DNA of 64,000 nt, taken from assembly GCA_964016885.1 (NCBI GenBank), contig OZ024743.1, positions 293,942,001 through 294,006,000 on the forward strand, written 5' to 3'. Of this stretch, positions 1 through 56,313 are shown one piece after another. The stretch comes from Eledone cirrhosa. Its lineage: Eukaryota. The notes under the pieces were generated by a model. The model saw only the letters and a list, made by a program, of their open reading frames with translations, did no database searches and was not told the DNA's origin. Made by a program: the position numbers and the translations under genes. How positions within the stretch are numbered: the stretch's first letter is position 1; each line of letters begins with the position of its first letter.

Positions 1-1371
1 CGATTTACCCCTTGTGCAACTAGTCATTGCATCCCGTACTTCAGCGGTTGTTATCGGCTTTTCGCAACACTCCGCCTCAGTGGCCGAAAGCCGCGGCAGT
101 CCGTCGAGGTAGACACTAAAGTCCATCCCTCGATCCGGCCCGCCACTGCCCCCGAACAGTTGAGCGAAGTGTTGCTGAAAAGCTTCACACATTTGCCCGG
201 GATCGAGTAGCATGCGCCCGTCGTGGTCCACCAAAGACCGGATCGTGGCTTTGTTGCCACGACGCGCCTCCGCCACTCGGGCCCATTGAACGGCTTTCGT
301 CCCCTCGTGTCTGAGAGCACGCACCCTAGCTCTGACAACGCAGCCTTCGTGCTTTGCATTGAAGAATTGGTCAAGGGCCAATTTCGCCGCAAGCACGTCG
401 GTCGCGATGCCTTTGCTAAGCGCCTCATCTAATTTTCTAACTAATTCTCCCTCTGCTCTATTTTTCTCTATTGCTAAAGTCTTACTAAACCTAATGGACT
501 CTATTCTAATTGCTCTTTTCAGAGCAAACCACCACTTTTTGTTGACGATGGCCCCCGTCAACGCCCGCTTAACTAGTTCGCTAATCCGGTCTCTGTAGGC
601 CTTGCGCGCTGGTAAGGACGCGTTTAACTTCCAGTAGCCGGGTCCTCGTCTATGAAGCCTATCTAAGTCAAGCACACAGATCACGAATTTGTGGTCCGTG
701 TAGCTGACTATCTTGAATTGTGGACAGCCTATGCTAGACCTATCTATTTCCCTACAAAATACTCTATCTAGATATGATCTGGATGACCCTATGCGATTTG
801 TCCAAGTCCACATGGGTACATTCGGGAAATCCATTCGGTACCTGTCAGACAGTTCAAAACGTCTGAGCAGGTTGGTGAGACTCTTGCACGCTCCTTCCCT
901 ATCCACTAATCCCACACAATCCCAGCGTGCATCTAAGATCCCGTTCCAGTCGCCCACTAACACTAAAGAGCGGGACGTTCCAAGAAAGGTCTCCAGACGC
1001 CGGAAGAAATCAGGCCGCCCTGCTCCTGTCGGGGCATAGACGGCCACTAACCTGAAAGCTTGCCCGTCTCCGCTGGTCACGTCCAGCACCACCAACTTAC
1101 CTTCTGGGTTCAGGAAGATGGCCCGTATGGCAAGATCCAAACCTCTCCGCAAAAGCACAGCAACTCCTCCCCCCGATCCCGAACGGCTGGGAGATGCGTA
1201 TACATCGTAGCCGCCGAAGATCGGTGCGAAAGCCTGTGCTTCGGAGATTCTGGTCTCGCTGATGGCCACTACATCTATGTTTAGTGACCTGAGGTCGTTG
1301 AGCAGGTGGCCCTGCTTCCATGACGACCCCAAGCCACGCGCATTTATGCTGCCCATTCTGAGTGAGGTCAT
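1..1371 (-). CDS. Tx1 ORF2 N-terminal part (APE endonuclease into RT), partial at window edge
   Basis: ATG at 1371 (MTSLRMGSINARGLGSS...). Near-identical to copy B ORF2 with no visible indel; missing from the ORF track, consistent with no stop before the window edge. Confidence 0.88.
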   Translation of the reverse strand, partial: MTSLRMGSINARGLGSSWKQGHLLNDLRSLNIDVVAISETRISEAQAFAPIFGGYDVYASPSRSGSGGGVAVLLRRGLDLAIRAIFLNPEGKLVVLDVTSGDGQAFRLVAVYAPTGAGRPDFFRRLETFLGTSRSLVLVGDWNGILDARWDCVGLVDREGACKSLTNLLRRFELSDRYRMDFPNVPMWTWTNRIGSSRSYLDRVFCREIDRSSIGCPQFKIVSYTDHKFVICVLDLDRLHRRGPGYWKLNASLPARKAYRDRISELVKRALTGAIVNKKWWFALKRAIRIESIRFSKTLAIEKNRAEGELVRKLDEALSKGIATDVLAAKLALDQFFNAKHEGCVVRARVRALRHEGTKAVQWARVAEARRGNKATIRSLVDHDGRMLLDPGQMCEAFQQHFAQLFGGSGGPDRGMDFSVYLDGLPRLSATEAECCEKPITTAEVRDAMTSCTRGKS

Positions 1372-1405
1372 GTTGAAAAGGAGTGGAAAAGATGGGAAAG
1401 ACCAC

Positions 1406-3390
1406 TTACCTTACTTCTCGTAGGGGAAGGACGGCTTTTCCATCCTTTTCACTGCTTGTGGCCTCCTCAGGAAGGATGTCCTTATAAATCCTCCTGGAGA
1501 GTGCTTGTCGGAAGTCTCCGATGTCTTTGGGGAATTTTTGTTTTAGTGTCATGTACGTTTTCTGTGTGATGCGAGTGATTTGTATGTGTGGAGGTGGTGT
1601 GAATTTTGGGGTTGTTGTGTAGTCTTTTTCTGTGATGCTGGTATTGTGTTGGATGTAGTGTAATAATTGCTTGTTGTTCAAATTTAATGCTGTGTAGTGT
1701 GTATCGTTTTGGTTGTTTTGTTTTGTTTGCGTTTGTTGTGGGTTTGTTTCTGTTTCGTATTTTGGTGACTTTTGTGGTGTAGGTGATAGTGGTGCTGGGG
1801 ATAATGATGGTGATGGTGTTGGTGTTTGGGTTGATGGGGTTGGTGATGCTGGTGTGGATGGTGGCATATCTGTCCTAACTTTTTTGTTTCTTAGTTTATT
1901 TGTTTCCCTCTGTATTTTGTTTTTGGAGGGGGAAGGAAGAGAATTTTTTCTTTTTTGGTTTCTTTTTTTTTTCCGGATATCGTTTCCCACTCCTCGTCGT
2001 CACAATCTGTCTCCAGTTGTGATAGGCCGGGGAGTGGAAAATCCTCCACAGCCGTTAGTTTTGGTTGTGGTGTGGTGGATGGTGTAGGCGCTGGTGCTTG
2101 TTCTGAAGCGTTGGGTGGTGGTGGTGTTCGTTTTGCTGGTGGTGGTAGTGGTGTTGGTTTTGCTACTGTTGCTGGGGTTGTTGCTGTTATAGTTGCTTCT
2201 GTTGTTGCTGCTACAGTTGTTGCTGCCATCTCTGCTACTGGTGGTGTTGATGGTTGTGTCACTGGGGTGGGTAGGAGAGGTGGCCTCAACCTTTTAGCCT
2301 GAGGGCAGAAAGCCCTTAGGTGGGTTCCTTCACCACAAACGACACACCTAGGTCTTCTGCCCTCGACAATTACCGTGAGGTGGCTGCCGTCAGTGAGGTC
2401 TATTACCTCTGGGATCTCCTCAATGCTTTTTTGGTCCGCTTGGATCAGGAGCTCCATCCCAGATCCGGACCAGTTTTCCTGCTTTTCTTTTGCTATTGTT
2501 ATTATTTTCGTGTTGGCCTCGATGCCGGCGATGACAGCCGCTATTAGCCAGGGAATTTCGATGGCCGGTGGAACGTGGGTCACCCTGATCTTTACGAGTC
2601 TCTGGCCACAATAGCTTGGGACGAGTGTGAAGTCGTCACTTTTTAATGGGGCCATGGAGTGTTCTCTAGCCTCCTCTGGTGTTTCAAAGAACACATCCAC
2701 GGTTCCATACTTTTGCCCACGTCTGATGTGGGTTTTTCTTGCCCACACATGTCCCAAAGCTTTTTGGATTTGGGACTCGGATGCCCGTTCCACTCGGCGC
2801 GATTTTACATTTATTGTTCTATACGACACGGTGCACAGGCGCCGATGCTCCATTTTATTAGGTGGGGGGGTGAGGCTGACCCTGTACCCATCTTTCTTTA
2901 CCATTTGTTTGGCATTTTCTAAATCTTCTTGAGTTACCGTGAACGCTTCGAATTGTTTTGCTACGATGGCGAAACTGAGGGTCGGTTTTATAATGTCATT
3001 GTTGTTGTTGTTGCTATCGTTAATATTAATTTTATTTTCAGTTGTGCTGGTGGTGACGTCAGTTGTCTTTGGTGGGGAAGAGTCCATTTTGCTTGATTTC
3101 ATTTCGACGTCACGAGTTAATTTATTTTTTTCTTCTTTTGTTTCTGTTGTCGCGGTGGTGGTGGTGGTGGTGGTTGTCGCGGTGGTGGTGGTGGTGGAGG
3201 GTTTAACACCTGCAGTCATTGGTAATGGCGGGAAATGAATGTCTGCCTGAGACAAATTTAAAATATTGCTACTGCTTATATTTTTTTTTGTGTTGGCAAA
3301 CGTAGTAACATTTACAATGGTGGTGTCGGTGTGAGGTGTTATTTTGTGAGGAAGGCTTTCAGCTGCTTCGTGCAGAGGGGAATTAGCCAT
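1406..3390 (-). CDS. Tx1 ORF1 (gag-like nucleic-acid binding protein, CCHC knuckle) of copy A, split by a frameshift in an A10 run
   Basis: ORF 1891..3390 contains CVVCGEGTHLRAFC (CX2CX4HX4C). ORF 1406..1990 supplies the C-terminus homologous to copy B (YKDILPEE vs YSDILLEE). The frame changes at the T10 run 1963-1972. Confidence 0.85.
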
Positions 3391-3599
3391 TTTTTTTCAA
3401 AGAAATTTTTGGATAATAATAAAAGTTAAAATTTTGGGCACAAGGCCCCAATCTTTTTGGGTGTCCTTTTCGGAAAACAATGTATGTGTGCTTATAAACA
3501 GTTTACAATAAAATTTTCCATAAATGGCAATTTTTAAACAAACGGAAATAACAAACCTTTGCGGAGCTCACGATAATACGATTTCCTACGTAGGTCGCC

Positions 3600-3634
<35 letters not shown>

Positions 3635-3895
3635 TTTCTTTATTAACCACAAGGGTTTACATAAAGTAGACATTAAGGACAGTGCAGGACAATGCAGGAC
3701 GGTACAAATGGGCATTTCTGCGTGTAAAAAAAACAAAAACAGAGGATGTAACAAAAATAACAATGAAAATAACAATGAAAAATTCCCCAATAGGGGGGAG
3801 ACTTCGGAGGGACATTTGTGGAGAAAGCCCAGTAAAAAGCCACAATGACCCTGACCACCAAGGCAAGTGCCCTCTCCCAGTTTTCCACCTTTAAT

Positions 3896-6800
3896 TTACA
3901 GATATATACTCAGAGTAGGCCCATTCACTCGGGCCATTCTTGCTTCTCTCACCCATCTTTCAACAAAATACTGGGAAGAGAGCACTTCCCTCTCTATTCT
4001 GATTTTCCTTTTCAAATGAAATTTGAAAAAGTCAATCAGAGCATCACCGAAGAGGTAAGTGCTCGTCTTCAGCCCTTTCAAACGTGTCCACCATACTATC
4101 TCTTTCGCCATGGCCACCAGACAGATAAAAACTGCCTGCCCTTCCCGGCTAAAGGAGGAGGGCGGGGCAATCCTCACGATGGACTCAGATGATAGCCGGA
4201 TCCGTCCTAAACGCGACAGCAGGTGTTCGACATAAACCCACAAGTCAGCAATTTTCGGACACTGGACGAGTGCGTGCAGGACGGTTTCGTCGCCCTGCGC
4301 GCATCTCGGACATGCCCGGCTGACGGCACCTCCATGCCTGTAGAGTTTATCCCGAACTGGCAAGGCTCCTCGGTAGCACTGCCAGGCCAGAGATTTCTGG
4401 AAGTTGTCCATAGGCCCCGGCCCGAAAGTTCTTCCGAAGAGATTGGCTAGTTGATTTTCGTCGACGCCTAGAGTTTCCCCAAGTACGTCGTCGCTCTTAC
4501 CCACCACTAATCCTCTATAGAACGCCGAGGTGGAGTTTCCACCGATCACATTGCCCGATTGGTCGAGGGCTGTGAGCGCCTGAAGACATTCCAGTCTCCA
4601 GGCGCTCCCTCTCGGTCTTCGCTTGACCCAGGACTGCAGCTCCGTCAAGGAAACGAGCTGGGGAAATACGTGTCTAGCAAACGGCGACCACACCTGATCA
4701 CCGTCGAGGAAGAGGTGGAGATGTCGTAGCCTGAGCGCGTACCTGCGCATCATCAGCCACGGCATGCCCAGCCCTCCACGTAGCGGGTGTTGACAACAGA
4801 TGGACCGCCTGACCATCGGAGCACGTCCCTTCCACAAAAAGCGAAAGAGCAAACGCTCCAGCGCAGTCAGGCGAGGCTTAGGACAAGGTACGACGGTCAG
4901 GCGGTAGCAGATGACAGACGCGATGTACGCGTTAGCCACCTCCGCTCGACCTTTCAGGGATAGCTTCCTCTCGGCCCATTTCTGGGTGAGAGAAGCCACC
5001 CTGCTCGTCACCTCGTCCCAGTTTTTGTCCGTCTGGAGGTCCGGACCGAACCAGACCCCTAGCAATTTAACCGGTCCGTCCGTCCAGCGTCCGACGACGC
5101 TGTTGGACGGCATGGAGCTGCCTCTCCAGGTGCCGAGCTGCAGGCCCACTGACTTTTCCTGGTTGATCATTGCTCCTGTCACCGCTTCGTATTCTCTTAG
5201 TGTAGTGCCGATCGCCTCGATGTGTTTGGCGTTCGACACCACTACGGTGACATCGTCCGCATAAGCTGACACGGATCTTCCGCATCCTAGTTCGCGCGGG
5301 ACTCCCCTCAACGTCTCCAGTTTGTGCAGTAATGGCTCGAGAGACAATACGTACAAGAGGGACGAGAGGGGACATCCTTGGCGGACCGAGCGCATGATGT
5401 TGAACGGTTCCGACAGGTGACCGTTCACTCTCACCACAGAGCAGATGTCGCTGTGCATGGCAGCGATCCAGCCTCTGAAGACGGGCCCAAAGCCAGCCGC
5501 CCTCAGGACTGCCGCTAGGTAACGATGGTCGACCCTATCGAAAGCTTTCGACTGATCTAAATTGATCAAGGACCCACCCGTGCCAGGTTCCTTAGCTACC
5601 CTCTCTATGATGTATCGCATGACGTGGAGGTTGTCGTGGATGGATCTGTCGGGAATGGCGCATGTCTGCGCCTCTCCCACCAGACCACCAACGACAAGCG
5701 CCAACCTCTTTGCTAGCACCTTGACCAAAATCTTGAACTCTGTGTTTAGCAGAGTTATGGGCCGGAAATTTTCTATGTTATCCCCCTTGTTCGGATCTTT
5801 TCTCAGCAGTGCCACCGCTCCTCGGCTCACAGAACTGGGAATTCTCCCGTTCTGTTGCCAGTTGCAGTAGACGTCCGCCAAGAGGCCTCCGAACAAGTCT
5901 GGCATCTGTACGTAAAGTTCATAGGGCAGACCATCCAAACCAGGCGATTTACCCCTTGTGCAGCCAGTCATTGCCTCCCTTACTTCAGCGGCTGTTATCG
6001 GCTTTTCGCAACACTTCGCCTCAGTGGCCGAGAGCCGCGGCAGTGCGTCGAGGTAGACACTAAAGTCCATCCCTCTACCCGGCCCACCGCTGCCCCCGAA
6101 CAGCTGAGCGAAGTGTCGCTGAAAAGCTTCACACATTTGCCCGGGATCGAGTAGCATGCGCCCGTCGTGGTCCACCAAAGACCGGATCGTGGCTTTGTTG
6201 CAACGACGCGCCTCCGCCACTCGGGCCCATTGAACGGCTTTCGTCCCCTCGTGTCTGAGAGCACGCACCCTTGCTCTGACAACGCAGCCTTCGTGCTTTG
6301 CATTGAAGAATTGGTCAAGGGCCAATTTCGCCGCAAGCACGTCGGTCGCAATGCCTTTGCTAAGCGCCTCGTCTAATTTTCTAACTAGTTCTCCCTCTGC
6401 TCTGTTATTCTCTATTGTTAAAGCCTTACTAAACCTAATCGATTCTATTCTAATCGCTCTTTTCAGAGCAAACCACCACTTGTTGTTGACGATGGCCCCC
6501 GTCAACGCCCGCTTAACTAGTTCGCTAATCCGGTCTCTGTAGGCCTTGCGCGCTGGTAAGGACGCGTTTAGCTTCCAGTAGCCGGGTCCTCGTCTATGAA
6601 GTCTATCTAAGTCAAGCACACAGATCACGAATTTGTGGTCCGTGTAGCTGACTATCTTGAATTGTGGACAGCCTATGCTAGACCTATCTATTTCCCTACA
6701 AAATACTCTATCTAGATATGATCTGGATGACCCTATGCGATTTGTCCAAGTCCGCATTGGCACATTCGGGAAATCCAATCGGTACCTGTCAGACAGTTCA

Positions 6801-7315
6801 AAACGCCTGAGCAGGTTGGTGAGGCTCTTGCACCCTCCACCCCTATCCGCTAATCCCACACAGTCCCAGCGTGCATCTAAGATCCCGTTCCAGTCGCCCA
6901 CTAACACTAAAGAGCGGGACGTTCCAAGAAAAGTCTCCAGACGCCGGAAGAAATCAGGCCGCCCTGCTCCTGTCGGGGCATAGACGGCCACTAGCCTGAA
7001 ATCTTTCCCTTCTCCGCTGGTCACGTCCAGCACCACCAGCTTACCCTCTGGGTCCAGGAAGATGGCCCGTATGGCGAGATCCAAACCTCTCCGAAAAAGC
7101 ACAGCAACTCCTCCCCCCGATCCAGGACGGCTGGGAGATGCGTACACATCGTAGCCGCCGAAGATCGGTGCGAAGGCCCGTGCTTCGGAGATTCTGGTCT
7201 CGCTGATGGCCACTACATCTATGTTTAGTGACCTGAGGTCGTTGAGCAGGTGACCCTGCTTCCATGACGACCCCAAGCCACGCGCATTTATGCTGCCTAT
7301 TCTGAGTGAGGTCAT
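3896..7315 (-). CDS. Tx1 ORF2: APE endonuclease + reverse transcriptase + C-terminal zinc finger, 1139 aa, intact
   Basis: APE motifs SINARGL, ISETR, VYAP, GDWN, YLDRVF, TDH; RT motifs KSPGLDG, FRPITLLN, DQSKAFDRV, RQGCPLS, YADD; zinc finger CPRC...ETVLHALVQC. Confidence 0.96.
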   Translation of the reverse strand: MTSLRIGSINARGLGSSWKQGHLLNDLRSLNIDVVAISETRISEARAFAPIFGGYDVYASPSRPGSGGGVAVLFRRGLDLAIRAIFLDPEGKLVVLDVTSGEGKDFRLVAVYAPTGAGRPDFFRRLETFLGTSRSLVLVGDWNGILDARWDCVGLADRGGGCKSLTNLLRRFELSDRYRLDFPNVPMRTWTNRIGSSRSYLDRVFCREIDRSSIGCPQFKIVSYTDHKFVICVLDLDRLHRRGPGYWKLNASLPARKAYRDRISELVKRALTGAIVNNKWWFALKRAIRIESIRFSKALTIENNRAEGELVRKLDEALSKGIATDVLAAKLALDQFFNAKHEGCVVRARVRALRHEGTKAVQWARVAEARRCNKATIRSLVDHDGRMLLDPGQMCEAFQRHFAQLFGGSGGPGRGMDFSVYLDALPRLSATEAKCCEKPITAAEVREAMTGCTRGKSPGLDGLPYELYVQMPDLFGGLLADVYCNWQQNGRIPSSVSRGAVALLRKDPNKGDNIENFRPITLLNTEFKILVKVLAKRLALVVGGLVGEAQTCAIPDRSIHDNLHVMRYIIERVAKEPGTGGSLINLDQSKAFDRVDHRYLAAVLRAAGFGPVFRGWIAAMHSDICSVVRVNGHLSEPFNIMRSVRQGCPLSSLLYVLSLEPLLHKLETLRGVPRELGCGRSVSAYADDVTVVVSNAKHIEAIGTTLREYEAVTGAMINQEKSVGLQLGTWRGSSMPSNSVVGRWTDGPVKLLGVWFGPDLQTDKNWDEVTSRVASLTQKWAERKLSLKGRAEVANAYIASVICYRLTVVPCPKPRLTALERLLFRFLWKGRAPMVRRSICCQHPLRGGLGMPWLMMRRYALRLRHLHLFLDGDQVWSPFARHVFPQLVSLTELQSWVKRRPRGSAWRLECLQALTALDQSGNVIGGNSTSAFYRGLVVGKSDDVLGETLGVDENQLANLFGRTFGPGPMDNFQKSLAWQCYRGALPVRDKLYRHGGAVSRACPRCAQGDETVLHALVQCPKIADLWVYVEHLLSRLGRIRLSSESIVRIAPPSSFSREGQAVFICLVAMAKEIVWWTRLKGLKTSTYLFGDALIDFFKFHLKRKIRIEREVLSSQYFVERWVREARMARVNGPTLSIYL

Positions 7316-7317
7316 GT

Positions 7318-9369
7318 TTAAAATAGAGTGGAAAAGATGGGAAAGACCACAGACCGTACTTTTGGTAGAGGAGGGATGGTTTTTACATCCCTTTTCACTT
7401 GATCGTCTGGTGAAGGGACCGTTGAATCGTCCCTTCGGCTGGTCGTCGGCTCTTCTAAGAGAATGTCTGAATATACTCTTCGATTGATGGTTCCTCCTAG
7501 GTCCCTGAAATCACCAACTGCGTTGGGGAATTTCGTTTTAATGTTTGTGTATTGTTTCTGTGCTATTTTTAGCAGTCTTATGTTAGTTGGCGTTTTGATT
7601 GGTGCTGGTATTATGTAGTCCTGTTGTGAAATGTCTGTGTGTTCAATTTTGTAAGTCATTAGTTTCTTGTTGTGTGTATTTATTGCCGTGCATTTGTTTT
7701 TCTGGGGGTGGGGTGTGGTTCTGCTATTTTCTTGTCGTTGTTGCTGGGTGTGTGTGTTTTGTTGTTGTGTTTGCGATGTTGGTGCTTGTGGTGGTGGTGT
7801 TGAAGGTGTTGTTGGCGGTGGGGTTGTCGCCGGTGGTGATGGTGGTGCTAGTGTGGGTGGTGATGGTGTTGGTGGTGTTGCTGCTGTGGGTCTCTTTGCA
7901 GTAGACTTTACCCTTTTCTCATTTCTTTCCTCCCTTTTCAAAGGCGACGATGCGCTGCTTCTGCGTTTGTGCCTTCTTACGACCTTTTGCCATCCCTCTC
8001 CCACCTTACACTCCATGTCTGATTCTGTGAGGTCGGGGAGGGGTACCAGCTCCACTCTTTCACTTGTTGTTGTTGGTGATGTTTGCACTGGAGTCTCTGT
8101 TGCAGCTGCATTTGGTATTGCTGTTGTTGTTGTTAATATTTCCACTGCTGCTGCTGTTTTTGATTTCCGTGGCGTGGGTATGGGTGCCACGGACCTATCG
8201 TTCCTGGTTGCCGCTTGTCCTGTTGCTGGTAGCCGTGGAGCCGGATTCGGAAGGAGGGGGGTTTTCTCCTTTCTCAGGGTCTTCTCGTTGCAGAAGGCCC
8301 TGAGGTGAGTCTTCGATCCACAGCGAAAGCATTTCGGGCGTTTGCCCTCAACACTTATGGGCAGTTGAGTGCCGTTATCGAAGTCTATCACATCCGGGAT
8401 AGCTTCGATGCACTCCTGGTTGGTTTGGATTAGCATCTCAATGGAGGTGCCGACCCAATCTTCTCTTACTTTTTTCTGTACTTGCAGTACAGTTGTTTTG
8501 TCCTCGATTCCGACGAGGACAGACGCGGCCAGCCAAGAAGGGGCCATTCCGGGTGGGACGTGGGTTAGTTTGACCCTCACAATTTTTTGCCCGCAGTAGG
8601 AGGGCACCAACACCATTTCCTCGCTCCTTAGGGTCACTACGGATTGGGCCTTTGCCTCCTGGGGTGTGGCAAAAAGTACGTCTACGGTGGCATATTTTTT
8701 GCCTCGGGTGATGTGCGTTTTCCACTGCCACACAGACCCCAAGGCTTTTTGTATTTGGGCCTCTGTGGCTCTTTCCACCCTACGGGATTTTGTACTTACT
8801 GTACGGTACGTGACCGTACAGTGCTGTTGGGTTTCGAAAAATGTTTCCGCTGCCTTGCAGATTGCTCGGTGTCCATTCTTTGTCACCATCTTCTTCGCTT
8901 CCTCTAATTCCTCATTTGTTATGAGGATTGTTTCCAAGTTTTTCGCAATACCTGCAAATGAGATTGGTTTTTCGTTGCTGCTGTTGTTGTTGTTGTCGTC
9001 AGAGCTGCTGTTACTTTTGTTGTTGCTGCAGGTACTACGACTACTGCCTTCGCCGCTGTTGCTGTGGTTGTTGTTGGTGTTGCTGCTGCTAATGCTGTTG
9101 TTGTTTATGCTGCTGGTGAAGCTGTTGCGGCTGCTACTGTTGTTTTCATTGTCACTGTTGCTGTTGTTATTACGGCTGCTACTGCTATTATTCCTGACGT
9201 CAGACGAATGAACTGGGTTTTCGTATTTCCCGCACACCTGTTTCGTCGCTGTCGTCGTCGTCGTGGAGAAACATTGCATGCTTTGCACGAGACTTTTCTT
9301 TTCTTTCGTCACTTGCGAAAGAGAAGGGAGGGAGAGAGACACATTTAAAGAAGGGAGGGAGAGAGTCAA
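7318..9369 (-). CDS. Tx1 ORF1 of copy B, up to 683 aa, CCHC knuckle, low-complexity N/S and P/T tracts
   Basis: CFRCGSKTHLRAFC knuckle; stop codon 2 nt before the ORF2 ATG (TAA-AC-ATG). True start codon uncertain. Confidence 0.9.
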   Translation of the reverse strand: MTLSLPSLNVSLSLPSLSQVTKEKKSLVQSMQCFSTTTTTATKQVCGKYENPVHSSDVRNNSSSSRNNNSNSDNENNSSSRNSFTSSINNNSISSSNTNNNHSNSGEGSSRSTCSNNKSNSSSDDNNNNSSNEKPISFAGIAKNLETILITNEELEEAKKMVTKNGHRAICKAAETFFETQQHCTVTYRTVSTKSRRVERATEAQIQKALGSVWQWKTHITRGKKYATVDVLFATPQEAKAQSVVTLRSEEMVLVPSYCGQKIVRVKLTHVPPGMAPSWLAASVLVGIEDKTTVLQVQKKVREDWVGTSIEMLIQTNQECIEAIPDVIDFDNGTQLPISVEGKRPKCFRCGSKTHLRAFCNEKTLRKEKTPLLPNPAPRLPATGQAATRNDRSVAPIPTPRKSKTAAAVEILTTTTAIPNAAATETPVQTSPTTTSERVELVPLPDLTESDMECKVGEGWQKVVRRHKRRSSASSPLKREERNEKRVKSTAKRPTAATPPTPSPPTLAPPSPPATTPPPTTPSTPPPQAPTSQTQQQNTHTQQQRQENSRTTPHPQKNKCTAINTHNKKLMTYKIEHTDISQQDYIIPAPIKTPTNIRLLKIAQKQYTNIKTKFPNAVGDFRDLGGTINRRVYSDILLEEPTTSRRDDSTVPSPDDQVKRDVKTIPPLPKVRSVVFPIFSTLF

Positions 9370-9651
9370 TTCTTTTTCGTAGCCATGTTGTTTTTTTTGT
9401 TTGAAATAAATATTGGGTACAAACCCCCAATAAGCAGTTATTTAACCCCGAAGGGCCAAATAACGGGCAGAAAGACCCCTCTCACGAGGAGGAGGGTGTT
9501 TTTGTCTACAAGTTGGTCTAAGTTTTAAACAATTTACAATTGTTAAAGCGTTCAAAATTTACAGTACCTTACAGAGCCGAGCCTCCGTCAACCATAGCAT
9601 TCAATAATAATAATAATAATAATAATAAAATTAAAAAAAATAATAAAAAAA

Positions 9652-10904
9652 ATAAAAAAATGAAGAAATTGATAAGAACTGAATACACACGGAGAGTAAG
9701 GAGCGTATTAAAGTCACATCTGAACAGTAGGAATGCCATAATTCCCGAGCTGTGTCTATTATTAGGTATATTGCGGGAATTCTGAGATAGAATGTTGCTG
9801 AACAAAAAGAAATGGATAGGAAGACTAGAAAGCTATTGACTATCTACAACATGTTCCACAAGAGGAGTGATGTCAATAGACTCTACTTAAGGAGATCTGA
9901 AGGTGGAAGAGGTCTTATCAGCATAGAGGACTGTGTTCAGATGGAGAAAAACAACCTACACAAATACGTGACTGATAGTAAGGAGCCAATGCTCAGAACT
10001 GTACTGAAGGAGAGGACAATAGACCAGGGGATGTCCAAGGAGAAAATAACAACAAGGAGAAAGAGCAGCCTTCAGGAAAAATCCCTTCATAGTACCTTCT
10101 TTGAGAAAACTGAATTCAGAGAACCACAGACATGGAACTGGTTGAAAAGAGGAGACCTTAAAAAGGCTACAGAAGGAATGTTAATGGCTGCGCAAGAGCA
10201 GGCCCTCAAAACGAAGTGGTTGAAACACCATATTTACAAGGAGGATGCTAGCCCACTGTGCAGGATCTGTGGAGAGAGAGAGGAGACTGTGGCTCATATT
10301 GTATCCGAGTGTAAACACCTAGCCCAGACTCACTATAAGGGCTGGAGACATGATGTGATGGACAGGGTGATCCACTGACACCTATGCAAAGTAAACAATT
10401 TACCACATTCTGAGAAGTGGTATGAGCATAAGCCAGAGTCGGTGATAGAAAACGATCAGGTGAATGTGCTGTGGGATTTTAGGATACAGACGGACAAGAA
10501 ACTGGAACACAATAGACCTGACCTGGTGGTTGTGGACAAAGAAAAAAGATCGTGCCTGATTGTGGATGTGGCCTGCCCATTCGACACGAGAGTGCAAGAG
10601 AAGGAGAGGGAGAAAATTAACCGATACCAGGACTTAAAGTGGGAGGTAAAAAGGATTTGGAACTGCCACGAAGTCAAAGTGGTCCCGATTGTCATAGGCG
10701 CACTAGGTACTATCTCAAAAAGATTCCAGGGATGGTTAAAGAAAATTGGCCCCTTCACGCTTTTTGGAACGCTTCAAAAGGCATGCTTGCTGGGAACAGC
10801 AAGAACCCTCCGATACGTACTGAATATCTGAGGCTGCAGGTAGTGGCTTGATATTCATTTCAACAAACATTCCAGTTAACTAACATCAATGACTGAGACT
10901 CAAA

Positions 10905-10907
<3 letters not shown>
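9652..10907 (+). mobile_element. R4/Dong-type RLE non-LTR retrotransposon, 5'-truncated copy 1 (pseudogenised)
   Basis: CCHC CRICGEREETVAHIVSEC, RHD motif, and PD-(D/E)xK endonuclease LWDFRIQTD...RPDLVVVD...IVDVACPFD...EKINRY. ORF ends 10831; short 3' UTR then (TAA)n at 10905-10952; internal stop. Confidence 0.9.
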
Positions 10908-10952
<45 letters not shown>

Positions 10953-13713
10953 GTGAGGAAATTACTTGGCATGAAAGCGAGAGGAAACAACAAACAAGAA
11001 AGATCAGAACCTTGGTGGAAGAAACGACTGAATGGTCAAATCAGGGAAATGAGAAATGACATTGGAAGATTGAGTCCCTACTGAATGGGACACTAAAAAA
11101 CATAGACACTAAAAATAGACAGGAAATAAAGTACAAAACTAGGAGGAAAAAGCTAAATATTATCATAGAGGAACTGAAGCAACGCATTGTAGCAAAGAGT
11201 GCACAAATTAGGCGATACGAGAGAAAAGTCTGTCAGTATAGACAGAACCGCATGTTTGACAACAACCAGAAGATGCTGTTTGGACAGCTTGAGGGGAAAG
11301 AAAGAGGCAACGACTAGATCCCTGAGGCGGAACGAACTAAGACGTTCTGGAGAGGAATATGGGATCAGGATGTTAAATATAATGACCAGGCAGTGTGGAT
11401 TGAGACAGTACAAAAGGATATTAGTGAACAGGCACACCAACAAACTGATTTGAGTATCACAGTTGAAACTCTTAAGGGGCAGGCCAAAAAACTAACCAAC
11501 TGGAAATCACAGGCCCAGATGGTGTGCAGGAGTATTGAATTAAAAATATAACATCCCTCCACCCGAAACTGACAACCACGTTCAATGACTGCTTGATGTC
11601 AGGTGAGGTACTAGAGTGGTTGACAAAAGGTACCACAGTTCTGGTAATGAAAGACTGAATCAAGGGTAATGATGTTACCAACTATAGACCTATCACATGT
11701 CTGTCCGTAATGTGGAAACTGTTGACAAGCATTATGTCTGAGGAAATCTACCATCACCTCCACACAAACAACTTGTTACCGGAAGAACAGAAAGGATGCC
11801 GAAAGAAGTCCCGTGGTACAAAGGACCAGTTACTTATTGATAAGATGGTAATGAGGAATTGCAAGAGGAGACACACTGGTCTTGACATGGGATGGATAGA
11901 CTACAAAAAGGCATTTGACATGGTGCCTCATTCTTGGATCACCAAAAGCCTAGAGATCTTCAAGGTGGCAGATAACATCAGACAGTTGTTGGGCAAAAGT
12001 ATGAAGTCCTGGAAAACAGAGTTAACATCAGCTGGAGTTTCCTTGGGAGGCGTGACGATCAAGAGAGGTATCTTCCAGGGAGATAGTCTGTCCCCTCTGT
12101 TGTTTGTCCTTGCCCTGATGCCCCTGACCATTATACTGCGAAAAGTGAGAGCAGGATACAAGTTGGGAAAGGGAGAGCTTATAAATCAATCACCACTTCT
12201 TCATGGACGATCTTAAGCTCTTCGGGAAGAGTGAGAAGGAGTTGGATGTGCTCGTTGGCACTGTCCGTATTTTCAGCAATGATATATGTATGCAATTTGG
12301 TATTAGTAAGTGTGGAGTCCTTGTGATGAAGAGGGGTAAATTGAGCAGAAGCAACGGAATCCAGGTACCAACAAGTGAGATGATAAAGGAAATTGACACT
12401 GAAGAAGGATACAAGTATTTGGGTGTTCTGGAGGCTGATGACACAAAGAACAAAAAAAATGAAGGAATTGATAAGATCTGAATACATTCGGAGAATAAGG
12501 AGCGTATTAAAGTCACATCTGAACATTAGGAATGCCATAAATGCAGTAAATTCCCGAGCTGTGTCTATTATTAGGTACATTGCGGGAATTCTGAGATAGA
12601 ATGTTGTTGAACAAAAGGAAATGGATAGGAAGACTAGGAAGCTATTGACTATCTACAGCATGTTCCATAAGAGGAGTGATGTCGATACTTAAGGAGATCT
12701 GAAGGTGGAAGAGGTCTTACCAGCATAGAGGACTGTGTTCAGATGGAGAAAAACAACCTACACAAATACGTGACTGATAGTAAGGAGCCAATGCTCAGAA
12801 CTGTACTGAAGGAGAGGACAATAGACCAGGGGATGTCCAAGGAGGAAATAACATCAAGGAGAAAGAGCAGCCTTCAGGAAAAATCCCTTCATAGTACCTT
12901 CTTTGAGAAAACGGAATTCAGAGATCCACAGAGAAGGAACTGGTTGAAAAGAGGAGACCTTAAAAAGGCTACAGAAGGAATGTTAATGGCTGCGCAGGAG
13001 CAGGCCCTCAAAACGAAGTGGTTGAAACACCATATATTCAAGGAGGAGGCTAGCCCACTGTGCAGGATCTGTGGAGAGGGAGAGAGAGAAGTGACTGTGG
13101 CTCACAATGTATCCGAATGTAAACACCTAGCCCAGACTCACTATAAGGGCTGGAGACATGATGTGATGGGCAGGGTGATCCACAGGCACCTATGCAAAGT
13201 GAACAATTTACCACATTCTGAGAAGTGGTATGAGCATAAGCTAGAGTCGGTGATAGAAAACGATCAGGTGAAGGTGCTGTGGGATTTTAGGATACAGACG
13301 GACAAGTAACTGGAACACAATAGGCCTGACCTGGTGGTTTTGGACAAGGAAAAAAGATCGTGCCTGATTGTGGATGTGGCCTGCCCATTCGACACGAGAA
13401 TGCAAGAGAAGGTGAGGGAGAAAATTAACCGATACCAGGACTTAAAGTGGGAGGTAAAAAGGATTTGGAACTGCCATGAAGTCAAAGTGGTCCCGATTGT
13501 CATAGGCGCACTAGGTACTATCTCAAAAAGATTCCAGGGATGGTTAAAGAAAATTGGCCCCTTCACGCTTTTTGGAACGCTTCAAAAGGCATGCTTGCTG
13601 GGAACAGCAAGAACCCTCCGATACGTCCTGAATATCTGAGGCTGCAGCTAGTGGCTTGATATTCATTTCAACAAACTTTCCAGTTAACTAACATCAATGA
13701 CTGAGACTCAAAG
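10953..13713 (+). mobile_element. R4/Dong-type RLE non-LTR retrotransposon, 5'-truncated copy 2 with RT (pseudogenised)
   Basis: RT motifs [45 protein letters not shown]; same CCHC/RLE C-terminus and 3' UTR as copy 1; several stops and frameshifts; ends in (TAA)n. Confidence 0.92.
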
Positions 13714-13774
13714 AATAATAATAATAAGAAGAAGAAGAAGAACAACAACAACAATAATAATAATAATAATAGTA

Positions 13775-14599
13775 ATGATTTCTTTATTGGCCACAAGCGC
13801 TGACATCAAGAAAAACATTACAGACGGCACAGGACGGTACAGGACATTACGATGTGGGTTTTGTGCGTGTAAAATTTGTTATTATTTATATAAAAAAAGA
13901 AAAGAAGACATAGAAACATATATATATATATATAAACAATAAAAATGAAAATTGAAACAGCGAAAAATTCCCCAATAGGGGGGAAACCTCCGAGGGTTAC
14001 TCGTGGCGGAAACCACACACAAGACCACGGCCACCCTGACCACCAGGGCAAGCGCCCTCTCTCAATTTTTCCATTTCTCAAACTACAGGCGTATATTCAG
14101 AGCGGCCCCGTTCACTCGGACCATTCTCGCTACATTCACCCACCTTTCAACAAACTTGCTAGAAGGCAGCACTTGCCTCTCCACCCTGATTTTCCTCTTC
14201 AAGTGAAACTTGAAAAAGTTAATTAGGGATTCGCCGAAGAGGAAAGTGTCTGTCTTTAACCCTTTAAACCTTGTCCACCACACAATCTCTTTCGCCATGG
14301 CCACCAGGCAGATGACAACCGCCTGCCCTCCCTCCTCGAAGGAAGAGGCGAGACCATCTGCACAATGGACACAGTCGATAACCGGATCAGTCCCACACGC
14401 GACAGCAACTGTTCGACATAGCTCCACAAGTCAGCAATGCTCGGGCACTGAACGAGTGCGTGCACGACGCTTTCATCGCTCTGCGCGCATCTCGGACAGG
14501 CACTGCTTACGGCACTTCCGTGCCTGTAGAGCTTATCTCGAACCTCCAACGCTCGCCGGTAGCTCTGCCAGGCAAGTAACTTTTGGAAGTTATCTATAG
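13775..14599 (-). mobile_element. Tx1 copy C, 3' fragment (ORF2 C-terminus and 3' UTR)
   Basis: Homologous to copy B 3633-4415 (CPRCAQSDESVVHALVQC; MAKEIVWWTR); same AATAAA-GAAATCA-(TTA)n end. Confidence 0.9.
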
Positions 14600-15730
14600 T
14601 TGCCCTCCTACTCACTGCGTTTGTTTTCTGCCCTGCTCTTGGTAGCAGAGGACCAGGTATTGGAAGGTAACGGGCAGGAAACAAACGCAGTATCCCCTTC
14701 CACGTTGAGTAGGAGGGCAACGTCCGTGGCACCCGTAACAATGCCACGGACAACTAAAGCAGCAGCATCAGTGGCGGCAACAACCAATAGCTACATTTAC
14801 AGTAGCTGCACCAGCAACAAAATAGCCGGAGAGGGCTCCACTACCACCACCAACAGCCGTGGAGCACATACCCTCCCAGACGCCACGGAATCCGACATGC
14901 AGTCTGAGGCGGGAGTGAAGTGGCAAACGGTCTGCCACAAAAAACAAAAAAACAAAAAAAAACTTAGATTCACCCTCCAAAAGCGAAGGCACACAAAGAG
15001 CGGTAAAGGCTGGAAGGAGACTTGCAGCCACACCACCACCATCACCATGACCACAACAAGCACCACCGCCAACAACAACCACACCAAAACCAGCATCACC
15101 AAAAAACACCAACAACGCAAACACAACAAAACGCACACACCCCACCAACACCAAGAACTCTCCCGACAAACATAAGAATCATTGATATCAAAATAGAACA
15201 GTACAAACTTTTAAAACAAAAAATTCCCCAACTCAGTTGGAGACTTCAGAGGGTCGGTTACCAAGAGGATATACACTGACATCCTCTTGTAATCACCCTT
15301 GACCAGCGAAAGGGACGGTTCTACTGTCCCTTCACCACACGATCAAGGTAAGTGACCCTTTCTGACTTGCCCCGTTTCTCATCCAACATGGCTGTACTTA
15401 GAATAGGCAGTATAAATGCACGTGGCCTGGGGTCATCTTAGAAGCAGGGTCACCTGCTCAACGACCTCAGGTCACTAAACATAGATGTGGTGGCAATCAG
15501 CGAGACCAGAATCTCCGAAGCACAAGTCTTAGCACCGATCTTCGGCGGATACGATGTATACGCATCTCCCAGCCGTCTAGGATCGGGGGGAGGGGTTGCC
15601 GTCCTTTTTCGGAGAGGCTTGGATCTCGCCATACGGGCCATCTTCCTGGACTCAGAAGGTAAGTCGGTGGTGCTGGGACGTGACCGGCAGCGAAGGCAAT
15701 GCTTTCAGGCTAGTAGCCATATACGGCCAG
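14600..15730 (+). mobile_element. Inverted Tx1 fragment: ORF1 C-terminal half and ORF2 N-terminus (APE), pseudogenised
   Basis: LPDATESDMQSEAGVKWQTV matches ORF1-B LPDLTESDMECKVGEGWQKV. ORF2 ATG at ~15388 (MAVLRIGSINARGLGSS*KQGH). Ends at (TTA)n 15731-15765. Confidence 0.88.
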
Positions 15731-37449: not shown

Positions 37450-40400
37450 ATCATCATCATCATCATCATCAACGTTTAACGTCCGTGTTCCACGCTTGCA
37501 TGGGTTTGGACGGGGGTAGTCCCACTTGAGGCAAGAGTGATTGTCTTGCTCGCATAGGACTGTCTGGCAGGTTTTCTACAGTTGGATGCCCTTCCTAACA
37601 CCAACCACATTTACAGTGTGGGTCTGGGAGGTTTTTACCGTGTTGCCTACACGGCCACATTACAGCGTGGACTGTGTGTTTTTTTGTCGTGACACCTACA
37701 CGATCTCATTTGTTTCGGCCTCGATGGCGCGGCACCAACATAACTTTACATAGAACGGGGTGGTGTGGATCGGGTGGGGGTGGTGGTGGTGGGACGGGGT
37801 GTATTTTGTTAGAGATGCCTACTGGCTGGAGTAGGTTTTACTATATATTTAGGTAAGGCGGGTCTTCTCTGTTACTGAGTACCGCCAAAGGTCTCGGTCC
37901 AGTGACATTGTCTTGGAGAGGTGTAAGTGTGTGATGTCGGAGTTTATCAGCTCGTCCCAGGTTTTTCTAGGTCTGCCTATTCCGTGACTACCGTCTATCT
38001 TTATTGCCCTGCACTTTGTTATACAGCTATCGACTTTCATGCGCATCACGTGTCCATACCAACGTAGCCTTCTCTCGAGTAAACAACATCTGATCCCTCT
38101 TATCTCTAATTTTTTCCTTAGTTCGTTTATGCTTTGCCGTTCACGTATATTACTGTTACACATCCAGCGGAGCATGCAAGCTTCGTTCCTCTCTAGTCTG
38201 CGTATATCCTCTGCACACAATGCCCAGGTCTCACTGCCATGCAGCATTGCTGTTCGTATGCAGGCATCGTACAACCTGCCTTTCATTTTTAGTGAGAACC
38301 CTTTAGCAGCTAATAGTGGTATAAGCTCTCTGAACTTTTTCCAACCAGTTCTGACTCTAGCTACAGTACTTTCAGAGCACCCTCCCCCACTGCTGATTTT
38401 ATCGCCCAGGTAACGGAAGCTGTCCACTATTTCTATAGAACCCTCTGCGCAATTGAAAGAGCTAGTAGTTTGTGGGCACTTGCTGCTACTTATTGCACCA
38501 GAGCACCGGCCACATGTAAAATCTATGTTCTTAGTTAGCTTACCTGTGATCCCACTACATCTTTTATGCACCCATACTTTGCATTTAGGACATAAAATGG
38601 AGTTTCTACCTACGCCTTTCCTACACACCGAGCACGACCATTTCCCAGAAGGGACCGCCGCCTTGTTTTCTTTCCTACAAACTAGTACTTTGGTCTTAGC
38701 CAGGTTAATTTTAAGTCCTTTTCACTCTAGGCCGTGCTTCCATGTTTGGAATTTCTTCTCTAGCTCGGCCATTGATTCCGCTATGAGTGTCAGGTCGTCT
38801 GCGTATAGGAGTTCCCATGGGCAGCTGGTCTTGAACTCCTCTGTTATAGCCTGAAGGGCAATAATAAATAGTAGTGGGCTGAGAACAGAGCCCCGATGGA
38901 CGCCAACTTTTACGCTAAACTCTTCACTATATTCGTTGTTAATTCTAACCTTGCTGACTGTTTCTTTATACATGGCTTGTATAGCCCTCACAAGCCATTC
39001 GTCAACGCCTAGTTTTCTAAGAGCCCACCAGATAATGGAGCGGGGGACTCTATCGAAGGCTTTCTCCAAGTCGACAAAAGCTAAGTAGAGGGGTTTACCT
39101 TTAGCTAGGTACTTCTCCTGTAGTTGTCGTACTATGAAAAGAGCGTCTGTGGTACTTTTGCCTGACACAAACCCGAACTGCATTTCATCTAGGTCAATTC
39201 TCTCTCTGATTAGTTGCGCTATTACTTTTTCCGTGACCTTCATGACCTGGTCGATTAATTTAATGCCTCTATAGTTACTCCTATCTAGGGCGTCTCCTTT
39301 ACCCTTATAACAGTTAACGATGATGCTGCTATGCCAGTCCTTCGGAACAACCTCATTCTGTACGACTTGGTTAACTATGCAGGTGACCATGGTGTGTCCC
39401 ACCGTGCCAGATGCCTTCAGCATCTCAGCAACTATTTCCGAAGGCCCAGCCGCCTTACCCGTCTTCATATCCTTGATTGCCTTACTTATTATACTCCCCT
39501 CGACTAACACTGCTGGTCCCTCTATTGGGTCGATATGGGGGAGACTGCCTTTCTCCCAATCATTCTCCTCATTTAGTAGCCTTTCATAGTGACACTTCCA
39601 AGCTACCTTCTTATCAGCGTCGGTGATGGCAAGTGTGCCATCGTCGTTTAGTACACACTTCTTCCCGACAATATCACGGTTTTCCTTGACGCATTGCCTA
39701 GCAATCCTGAACACCTCACGTTTTTGGTCATCGCGTTGTAGAACATGCTTGAACTTTCTTTCCTCAGCTTCCCTTCTTGCTAAGTACACTTGTCTCCTAG
39801 CTTCCCTCCTGGCCACTTGATAGTCCTCTCTACTTCCCCCATCCCGCCATACTTTCCAAGCCTGCTTTTTGGCCTTAATTGACCCCTCCACCTTACTGTT
39901 CCACCACCATGTTACTCTCCTCCTGCCTACAGGCCTGCTCCAGCCACAGACTTCGTCTGTCGCCAACAGCAGGTTTGCTTTCAGAAATTCCCACTCTCCC
40001 TCTATATTGTCCGACTCTAAATGTTCTTCCTTACTGTCGAAAGCATCAAGTAATATGCTTTGAAATTTATTCCTGGCTGTGGGGTCCTTTAGCTTCCATA
40101 TTTTCCTCCTGAGGATAGTCCTCTTCTGTTGTCGAGTACGTCTCGTCCTGACTATGAGGTCGCTAATTATCAGTCTATGTTGGGAGGTGCATTCTTCATG
40201 GGGGAGGGATTTAGTGTTTACAACAGACACTCTGTCACGTCTTCTGGTAAGGATATAATCTACCTGGCTTGTGTGTTCCCCGGATCTATAGGTGATCAGG
40301 TGATTGTCACGTTTTTTGAAGTTAGTGTTACAGATAGTTAGGTTATTTGCATCACAGAATTCCAGGATTCTGGAGCCTTCCTCATTTCTAGTACCAAACC

Positions 40401-41250
40401 CATAGCCTCCATGGATTTCGTCGTAGCCGTCACAATGTTGTCCAACGTGACCATTTAGGTCGCCTGCGATAATTATATAGTCACTGTCGGATATTTGGGA
40501 GGTAGTTAGCATCAGTGTCTCATAGAATCTGTCTTTTATAGTGCCGGGCAGTCCGGATTGGGGTGCGTACGCAGATATTACTGTCACCGTAGTTCTATTG
40601 AGGACAAGTCGTATTTTAATTATTCTGTCGTTCACTCTATTTACGTCTATTATCTTATCTGCCCACTTTTCTGCTACCATGATTCCTACTCCACCCAGCC
40701 CATCGTCGTTTCCCACCCAGAAAAGCTTATAACATCGTTTTTTACCCTCAATGAACCTAGCAGACCCACCCCTCCACCTGGTCTCTTGAATACAACAAAC
40801 ATCGACCTCCTTACGTTCAAGCATTTCTACAACCTCGTTAGCGCGACCCTTTAGGGTGCCTACATTTATGGTACCAACTCTGAAGTTTTGGATTGCGTTT
40901 GGGGGTTGTGGGCGGTGGGGGGCGGGGGGCGATGGGGTTATGTTAGCCGTCCGCGGTCGAAACAATGAGGAGTGCTCGCATTCTCGTCCAAGAGGTGAAT
41001 TTGTCTTTATCTTTGGCATTGTCGCTGAGCGTCCAGATTTTTCTCTCTCTCACCTCCACTCTCCAGGATTCCGCAGTCCATCCATCCATCATATATCGAA
41101 AGGCAACCAGGCAAGCGATAGTATAGGCCTCTGGTTTCTGATTAGTCCGCGTAATAATACTGGTGATGCGTGGGGGCTCTGTTTTATGATTGGTCCACGT
41201 AATAGCAATGGTGGTGCGTGGGGGTGGGAGGGAGGGGTGTTGGGTAGCTA
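37450..41250 (-). mobile_element. RTE-clade LINE, near full-length
   Basis: Single long APE-RT frame; ~380-nt 3' UTR ending in a (TGA)n tail at 37450-37470; 5' boundary uncertain. Confidence 0.92.
37849..41019 (-). pseudogene. RTE ORF (APE + RT + Cys/His finger), 1056 codons with one in-frame TGA at 38722-38724
   Basis: GTINVGTL, IQETRW, AYAPQ, GDLNGH, QVDYIL; DLEKAFDRV, GSVLSPLLF, YADD; GLE*KGLKINLAKTK continues in the same frame into CSVC...CPKC..WVH.RC...CGRC. Confidence 0.92.
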
Positions 41251-47620: not shown

Positions 47621-47621
47621 A

Positions 47622-48158
47622 TTGGTGGGTTGTAATTGTGCTAACGACAGCTGCGGTAGCGTAGGTAACAACGTAGGCAGCAACAATGATAGCCTTACCG
47701 TGGGAAATAGACGGAACCGCGACAGAAATTGCAACTGCCGCGACAGAAGACGCTGCCCACTTAGAGGATACCGGTTGACTGATAGGGTTATATATAGATG
47801 CACTATTACTAGCCACAATAGCGTTAAACATTATATAGGGGCCACCTCCGGCCCGTTCAAAATTAGGTTTCGAACACATCTCCACTCTTTCACAAATAGA
47901 AAACTAAGGCACTCCACTTCGCTCGCGGACTACATCACATCACTAAAGGACTTAAACATCAGCTTCTCCACGCACTGGGAGATTGTCGGTAGGGCTGCAC
48001 CGTACAACTTCAAGAGGAAATGCGATCTTTGCCTCATGGAGCTCTACTACATCATAACTGCACCCCACGAGCTCATCAACAGCAGAGCTGAAACAGCGAT
48101 AAGTTGTACACATCGCTTAAAAATATCCTTCTTCAGATGGGTTAAGGAGGAAGAGTGA
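47622..48158 (+). pseudogene. Inverted duplicate of the GIY-YIG domain
   Basis: Near-identical to the C-terminus of ORF 45163..46767. Confidence 0.9.
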
Positions 48159-55615: not shown

Positions 55616-56313
55616 CGTATATTTATATATATATATATATATATAGAAAAAAAAGATGAAATCGAAAATGCAACTGGAGTCTTATTTAAAAAAATATATA
55701 TATATTTATTTGGTTCCTTTACCGGTTTCGCAGTTCTTCTGCTTTTCAAAAGTAGAGTTGTGATGGAGGTTCTGTGGTTTTTCTCACATCTGGTTGGTCT
55801 CTGAATGTTACTTGTTTTATATGGAAAAAGTGGCTCGAAATGCCAGGTTTTTCGAGAAGTAATTTGATTGGTTGGTCAATAATTATAATAAATTTCGCGC
55901 CAGTTCACGTTACAAAGTTCTTCAAACAAGGGGGGTGTCACAGGTTGTTTTTTCATATATGAGTGTGTGAATTTCTTTTTACTTATTGACAAAACTATAA
56001 CCCTACTAACAAAAACCGAAGATCCCCGAACACAAGGCAGGACCCGATCCGCCGATCACAACCCATACAAAATATATTCCAAAACCGTAGACCCCTGCCC
56101 ACACAGAGCCTGTTCCAAAACCGTAGATCCCAACCCAACAAAGGAACAAAATCTAGAACCCGGACTATCAACAAACCGAACCTCAATAACTCCGAAACTT
56201 CTATACAATACACACAACAACAGGGAAAATACCATTAGATATAATAATACCATTGAAAAAACATTCCAGAAAAATCATTTTTTAGACCAAGGCTACAGGA
56301 CCCACGACACCCG

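Follow-up and report, generated by a model that had tools for sequence, protein, structure and literature searches.

ORF1 modules, comprising the 5' region and the RNA-binding ORF1 protein, have been exchanged as whole units between families of L1/Tx1-like LINEs in this genome, an event that we regard as almost certain. Such an exchange had been proposed in the first-pass annotation, and it was supported: synonymous divergence differs sharply between the two ORFs, ORF1 and ORF2 trees conflict (AU p 9e-70 against grouping family B with family G in ORF2), and the parental families were found, still present as fossils.

The window (the whole 64,000-nt stretch of DNA that was analysed) comes from a genome of 3.0 Gb, and its bases 1-9640 are the end of a head-to-tail array of ~45 kb on the minus strand. 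Taken together with the upstream stretches L031, L062 and L063, the array comprises six elements of near full length (B, A, B', D, F and an old A), with (ATT)n at the boundaries of each. The parts that lie in the window are listed in Table 1; the ORF1 of copy A also carries a frameshift near 1970, in an A-run.

Table 1. Parts of the LINE copies in the window.
Feature	Position	Strand	Evidence
Copy A, 5' part of ORF2 (AP endonuclease, ORF2 type 1), running on upstream into L031	1..1371	-	Pfam PF03372
Copy A, ORF1 stop (1406-1408) within the AG|GTAAGT motif (1404-1411), with 34-nt pyrimidine-rich spacer	1372..1411	-	
Copy A, ORF1 of type alpha: predicted tandem-RRM core, CCHC knuckle, C-terminal domain	1406..3390	-	
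Copy A, 5' UTR, no alignment to the B 5' UTR	3391..3599	-	
(AAT)n/(ATT)n tract separating B 3' end from A 5' end (target and tail)	3600..3632		
Copy B, 3' UTR with AATAAA signal	3633..3895	-	
Copy B, intact ORF2, 1139 aa (endonuclease, RT, zf-RVT), type 1, A lineage	3896..7315	-	
Copy B, old-A-derived spacer and ORF1 tail; family stop (7351-7353) mutated in the window copy only	7316..7397	-	
G|A junction from which family B was founded, 82 nt upstream of the ORF2 ATG; staggered, both ORF1 tails kept	7397..7398	-	
Copy B, G-derived 5' module: ORF1 of type beta (to 9386) and 5' UTR	7398..9602	-	
(AAT)n tract at the 5' end of copy B	9603..9626		
3' end of an F/G-type copy (ORF2 type 2), partner of fragment C	13743..14599	-	
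Fragment C, inverted piece of an F-family copy: phi-type ORF1 tail, 32-nt spacer, ORF2 ATG at 15388, ~330 nt of endonuclease	14600..15720	+	

The ORF2 of copy B contains PF03372, PF00078 and PF13966 (AP endonuclease, reverse transcriptase and zinc motif), with no other Pfam family at E<=0.1 and no RNase H. Its best relative of solved structure is human L1 ORF2p (E 6e-52, as against 1e-20 for R2) and its nearest named relative is a protein of Argonauta hians (73%), from which the host is probably an octopod. No named Tx1 protein occurred among 100 homologues or the clusters examined, and from these comparisons the elements are best described as Tx1-like, within an L1/Tx1-like group of LINEs, a label that falls short of proven Tx1. 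A separate ORF1 with an RRM and a CCHC motif is a known feature of the Tx1 clade. Here, a C-x2-C-x4-H-x4-C knuckle is invariant in the ORF1s of A, B and D, and a structural model of the ORF1 core built from three sequences (pLDDT 69) matched tandem-RRM proteins (E 7e-4, probability 0.99, low TM-score), which predicts a tandem-RRM-like core. Pfam gave no convincing family for ORF1, and no homologue was found among 1128 candidates of near length. Exchange had also been suggested at first pass to serve, perhaps, the evasion of host silencing; as to the positive selection that an arms race of this kind might bring, a crude estimate of dN/dS for the ORF1 core was 0.2-0.3.

Family B and its parents

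The ORF2s of A (1-1371, minus strand) and B (5945-7315, minus strand) are, as had been noticed at first pass, collinear and near-identical, at 95.8% over 1371 nt. Identity by blastn was 95.1% over 1455 columns, and it was 95.3% across the whole ORF2 and 3' UTR when A was extended by L031. The abrupt fall in similarity upstream was likewise confirmed, identity between A and B dropping to 55-64% across the ORF1 core and to 41-55% beyond it in the 5' direction, with 5' UTRs that could not be aligned; the cores, judged about half identical by eye, are 52% identical in amino acids. The shared stretch had, however, been placed too close to the ATG, as it starts ~82 nt and not ~35 nt before it, and the last 16 ORF1 codons of B are A-derived. 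The distance from ORF1 stop to ORF2 ATG had been said to differ in each copy, and it does so in the window (34 nt in A, 2 nt in B and 32 nt in C), but the 2-nt value is private to window B. At 84 of 90 distinct B-type junctions the sequence reads TAAG where A does, giving a 35-nt spacer, and a smaller sample agreed in full (29/29), while TCTG was seen in window B alone; the 2-nt spacing is a one-copy mutation.

The proportion of synonymous differences between A and B was 0.76-0.78 (saturated) in the ORF1 core and 0.087-0.089 in ORF2. The dS comparison that the first-pass annotation had called for thus gave a saturated ORF1 against an ORF2 dS of 0.09, which favours exchange. Even inside one ORF1 type, ORF1 dS is 2-3 times ORF2 dS (0.38 against 0.14 for A and old A), so part of the contrast must reflect rate or extra ORF2 exchange, which nevertheless cannot yield a gap of more than 20-fold. 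For decayed copies, in which ORF1 dS was first inflated by frameshifts, values from the ORF1-tree alignment were used; known mosaics were excluded from the family dS means (six rows) and the windowed-identity means (two rows), and two F rows are absent from the ORF1 tree.

This higher ORF1 rate, together with the position of the window in a ~45-kb array, could be taken to mean that there was no exchange, only fast ORF1 evolution, local ORF2 conversion or a collapse in the assembly, a reading that we consider highly improbable. Homogenisation of ORF2 by conversion in tandem arrays had been offered at first pass as an alternative, and assembly collapse named as a possible artefact; both are rejected because A and B are dispersed families, with 2353 exact junction-motif matches for the A type (some early B included) and 2343 for B. 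The best 40 matches for A and B are dispersed and 98-100% identical. Furthermore, A and B form separate clades in the ORF2 tree, each at 100/100, and the ORF2 of window A is 98-99% identical to dispersed A copies as against 96% to its neighbour B. A contig of 2370 nt from run X6 of another study spans the B junction (5609-7978) with 26 differences. The low-depth runs X5 and X6 were given no weight as to other species. The absence of exchange is also at odds with the conflict between trees and the existence of parents, as set out below.

Family B is a hybrid, with its 5' UTR and ORF1 from an older family, G, and its ORF1 tail, spacer, ORF2 and 3' UTR from old A. Family G came to light through a neighbouring copy in L066 whose 5' half is B-like (86%) and whose ORF2 is F-like; a search with this neighbour led to the family, of which 28 further junction-bearing copies were read and for whose junction motif 77 exact matches were counted. 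Identity between B and G is 78-95% over the 5' UTR and ORF1 and ~82% in ORF2, with a dS of 0.25 in ORF1 against 0.53 in ORF2. Separate trees of the two ORFs, also suggested at first pass, place B with G in ORF1, as ((A, old A),(F,(B,G))),D, and with A in ORF2 (+360..+3400), as ((A, old A, B),(G,F)),D at 100/100; constraining the ORF2 tree to B+G costs 1250 log-likelihood units (AU p 8.7e-70).

The joint, between window positions 7398 and 7397, is non-homologous and staggered by ~45 nt. The ORF1 of G extends one base beyond its third-last codon, after which come the last 16 codons of the A ORF1, with one added base that preserves the frame and stop of A. In early B copies the tail is still that of old A, without change, and in eight of them the 5' half is closest to G, at 92-95%. 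Early-B junctions numbered 557; the first 100 listed are identical at the joint, and 98 of these 100 carry the extra base. By exact motif matches B outnumbers its parent G ~30-fold (2343 against 77), an approximate figure since such counts are lower bounds that undercount old families. A two-step origin of B via a longer microhomology was considered and dropped, as the pattern of the intermediate had 0 matches, compared with the 77 G motifs.

A chain of ORF1 and ORF2 pairings

The first-pass annotation had described copies A, B and C as one ORF2 engine with three ORF1s. Fragment C does have a third ORF1 end and a different spacer, and its ORF2 start is very similar to that of A and B (87-89% over 335 nt), but the ORF2 is not the same. 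Over the remainder of ORF2, family F, to which C belongs, is 79-89% identical to A/B in 300-nt windows, with ~83% overall and ~75% at the 3' end, and the 3' end belonging to C itself (13743-14599, minus strand) is 75% identical to B. From their sequences, C and this 3' end can be read together as a single F-family copy that was rearranged, its 5' part being inverted. In place of one shared engine, the pattern is a chain: among the sampled copies, five ORF1 types (alpha, beta, phi, epsilon and delta) sit on four ORF2 types (1, 2a, 2b and 3), in the pairings alpha-1 (A), beta-1 (B), beta-2b (G), phi-2b (young F), phi-2a (old F), epsilon-2a (H) and delta-3 (D). At least three family-founding exchanges are thus needed.

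Most samples were drawn from best-match lists, the exception being the first 30 of 5461 matches to a shared endonuclease motif, which were typed as 14 A, 11 B, 3 F, 1 D and 1 of a new type, H. Further copies were found of H, which is a family in its own right. Junction-motif counts were 584 for the F type and 340 for D, and the top 40 matches of family D are 100% identical.

Young F was shown to be a recombinant with old F and G as its parents. In site painting, seven named young-F copies carried old-F/H alleles up to a point between +349 and +438/455 and G alleles beyond it, while no such change occurred in eight old-F copies; dS between G and young F is 1.15 in ORF1 against 0.13 in ORF2 codons 120-1139. 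B received the front half of G, and young F the back half. H and old F, both read to +1420, differ at 36 fixed sites in -307..-78, at 2 in the spacer and at 0 in +1..+1420; an exchange is seen here, in which either family may have been the donor. Among ten H copies, five have an ORF1 core of a fifth, deep type and the other five an old-F core with an H tail, implying a further break between core and tail inside ORF1 in the latter five. In the comparison by which the H cores were typed, ORF2 values are inflated by the rearranged rows L394, L403 and L289. L184, a candidate G/D chimera, turned out to be a deleted G followed by a piece of D.

The breaks that founded families lie at -82 (B), between -78 and -1 (H/old F) and between +349 and +438 (young F). 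The break of young F is homologous and falls within a conserved stretch. The fixed junction proposed at first pass could not be maintained, given that founder breaks are ~500 nt apart, with one non-homologous and one homologous, and that single-copy crossovers are found far into ORF2 (L064, L066_7600, L082, L106 and L200). The breaks of the three founding events mapped, a number too small for statistics, cluster near the ORF boundary (within ~500 nt) and not at a position common to all events.

(ATT)n arrays as a probable source of hybrids

(ATT)4+ stands directly 5' of all 20 of 20 young A/B copies. Among all fetched anchors it is present 5' in 36/40 and 3' in 35/40, where the tract may be the element's own tail; by the measure of Kojima (2015; PMC4494074), in which more than 20% of flanks denotes target preference, (ATT)n is a preferred target. 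In 16 of the 40 anchors another relative follows directly afterwards; in L186 and L188, for example, A comes after G. A chimera built like B, but present as a single copy, is L190, in which G, to ~+490, is joined without ATT to a type-1 copy from ~-20; it is a dead end. Mid-body joints between different engines numbered only two (L190 and L200) among 41 painted regions.

Mixed head-to-tail arrays at (ATT)n are likely to be the nursery of the chimeras, and the swaps probably arise because all families insert into the same short repeat and end side by side. A new copy would be primed at (ATT)n behind an older relative, and its truncated 5' end would be joined to that upstream relative, by a cDNA template jump or by annealing, with loss of the DNA between the two. 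A younger ORF2 would in this manner recruit an older 5' module. Selection would then retain only those hybrids whose ORF1 module is complete and whose ORF2 is nearly complete and working, which would explain why the founder breaks cluster at the boundary. The joining of a 5'-truncated insertion to an upstream element, with a deletion between them, is familiar from work on L1. A related idea, in which a 5'-truncated element inserts between the ORF1 and ORF2 of another, has been put forward by Metcalfe and Casane (2014; PMC4120745). Taken as a whole, the account of recombinant families whose hybrids came from a 5'-truncated copy joining an older upstream relative in an (ATT)n array is one that we consider probable.

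The swaps could instead have come about by reverse transcriptase template switching between co-packaged RNAs, or by ectopic recombination of dispersed copies, with arrays uninvolved, which we judge somewhat unlikely. The parental families do overlap in age (identity within G is 88-96%), the F break is homologous and inside a conserved stretch, A/B mosaics with breaks deep in ORF2 occur (L064, L066_7600, L082 and L200), and models of template switching and recombination have been discussed for mouse L1 (PMC3600994). Against this, the joint of B, with its stagger of ~45 nt, is not homologous, L190 displays the joining of a truncated copy, and mixed adjacency is common (16/40 anchors). Homologous breaks such as that of F could equally stem from ectopic DNA recombination, and the routes of formation may not exclude one another across events. 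For B itself, an origin by splicing can be envisaged, in which G was read through into a downstream A, spliced from a donor at the G ORF1 stop to a CAG in the A ORF1 tail, and retrotransposed in cis. The G side of the joint lies exactly at AG|GTAAGT and the A side right after CAG; the donor motif is found a single time in each of the reference elements of A, D, F and G, invariably at the ORF1 stop and in either of two reading frames; arrays of G then A exist, and spliced LINE chimeras have been reported in human (10.1101/2025.02.02.635956). The acceptor, however, is weak, with no adjacent pyrimidine tract and with AGs upstream, a 2-nt AG microhomology accounts for the joint equally well, and independent spliced retrocopies numbered 0 of 118 variant loci read. 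On balance we think it unlikely that B arose by splicing.

The 118 loci, all broken at the motif (34 further matches were listed), were point mutants, small indels and B variants, together with one microhomology deletion, and none of them lacked the putative intron of 52-54 nt. Searches for copies broken at the motif returned 28 and 45 matches for G/F, 38 and 41 for A and, with one of two complementary patterns, 0 for D. An in-frame fusion of ORF1 and ORF2 via this intron was rejected as a shared feature, since the phases suit A/B but not G. The wider proposal, that the conserved donor motif and (ATT)n stacking form a built-in shuffling device and that a splice founded family B, with at least 2343 copies, also seems rather improbable to us; if true, it would mean that read-through RNA is spliced from the ORF1 end of one family into the ORF2 module of the next.

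Relation to known chimeric LINEs

In mouse, families L1MdTf and L1MdGf arose when ORF1 and the 5' part of ORF2 from one lineage came to lie on the rest of the ORF2 of another (Sookdeo et al. 2013; PMC3600994). The families described here resemble them in that breakpoints vary from one event to another and an older 5' end is taken up by a young 3' end; the marks of such recombinant families are also present, with trees that are incongruent across the breakpoint and parents that can be identified for B and young F. In contrast to the mouse families, the ORF1s swapped here are 52-65% identical in protein, with a dS above 1 or saturated and 5' UTRs that cannot be aligned; one joint is non-homologous and kept two ORF1 tails; and five ORF1s and four ORF2s form a chain among elements that are target-specific and lie side by side. 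Reticulate evolution of ORF1, by whole-ORF1 transfer between lineages, has been described for Jockey/CR1/L2 elements, where ancient events are deduced from ORF1 architecture (PMC4120745). Here, by comparison, recent events are mapped to the base or to within <100 nt, with both parents and the single-copy example L190 in one genome.

Tx1 families that target microsatellites are known, Kibi at (TC)n and Koshi at (TTC)n, as are tandem insertions of SINEU-3, a SINE linked to Tx1 (PMC4494074). The present elements are, like Kibi and Koshi, APE-type LINEs with a microsatellite target, but the target is (ATT)n, and the term 'ORF1' has 0 occurrences in the main text of that paper. Octopus vulgaris has 13 recently active L1-Tx1 families (PMC13282606). 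The literature searched, in which subscription journals and Repbase reports are incompletely covered, yielded no case of ORF1 exchange for Tx1 elements or for cephalopod LINEs, and none is described in the accessible parts of PMC5381506, PMC13282606 and PMC13188248. What distinguishes the present case is how deeply the swapped modules diverge, the recurrence of exchange in a chain whose parents survive, the non-homologous founding joint and the mixed arrays driven by a shared target; of these, depth and repetition are the new part.

These families show that the ORF2 of a LINE can be served in cis by an ORF1 with only about half identity to the original one, and that lineages of ORF1 and promoter have histories separate from those of ORF2. 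In repeat libraries classified by reverse transcriptase only, these families would be lumped together or given wrong ages. Parents, early hybrids and hybrids are all present in one genome, which opens three long-standing questions to direct test: how LINE chimeras form, whether a borrowed 5' module enables families to coexist or to escape silencing, and whether recombination is faster where the target is specific.

Junctions, donor-like motif and A-run in ORF1

In five of the copies fetched for family H, which carries the epsilon ORF1 type on an F-like ORF2 of type 2a, an ORF1 core of the older family F copies was found joined to the H tail (L386, L389, L394, L399 and L403). These chimeric copies imply a recombination event internal to ORF1 that fell somewhere after the RRM/CCHC core and before the C-terminal domain. 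The donor-like motif at the ORF1 stop was retained in two frames across ORF1 types whose dS is saturated, with its -2 base altered in later B copies, and U1 binding or translation coupling can be offered as guesses at its role.

An A-run in ORF1 of family A (window ~1960-1980) throws the reading out of frame and removes the C-terminal domain in 16 of the 44 distinct young copies, and was found interrupted in one old-A copy. The frameshift in the young copies could be due to slippage, programmed frameshifting or homopolymer error.

Coordinates and content of the features discussed
Feature	Location	Strand	Content
AG|GTAAGT motif	window 1404-1411 and 15346-15353		present in all families
Two decayed LINE copies	window 9646-13760	+	RT, zf-RVT, PD..D-type restriction-like endonuclease motif
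LINE, 775 aa	window 37849-41049	-	endonuclease and RT; then a frame with a PHD-like finger
Family D	L031:1-1600 and L062 (upstream, same head-to-tail array); G000:C1:423365592-423418126 (tandem run)

Other elements in the window

The two decayed LINE copies, which are 94% identical to each other and which we take from their appearance to be Dong/R4-like, also terminate in (AAT)n, and this target is common to them and the Tx1-like group, in opposite orientations. The 775-aa LINE is presumably RTE-like, judging by its looks. Long ORFs at window 45163-47903 (-) and 56257-58294 (+) gave no Pfam match at E<=0.01; by eye, their residues resemble pieces of a Penelope-type RT.

Distribution of families G and D

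Of the 77 family G copies among the motif matches listed, 72 came from the contigs of greatest length, C1-C5 and C28, as a raw count unscaled to genome share. Family D is very young: its best 40 matches were all 100% identical, and on contig C1 it forms a tandem run of ten copies spaced at about 5.84 kb.
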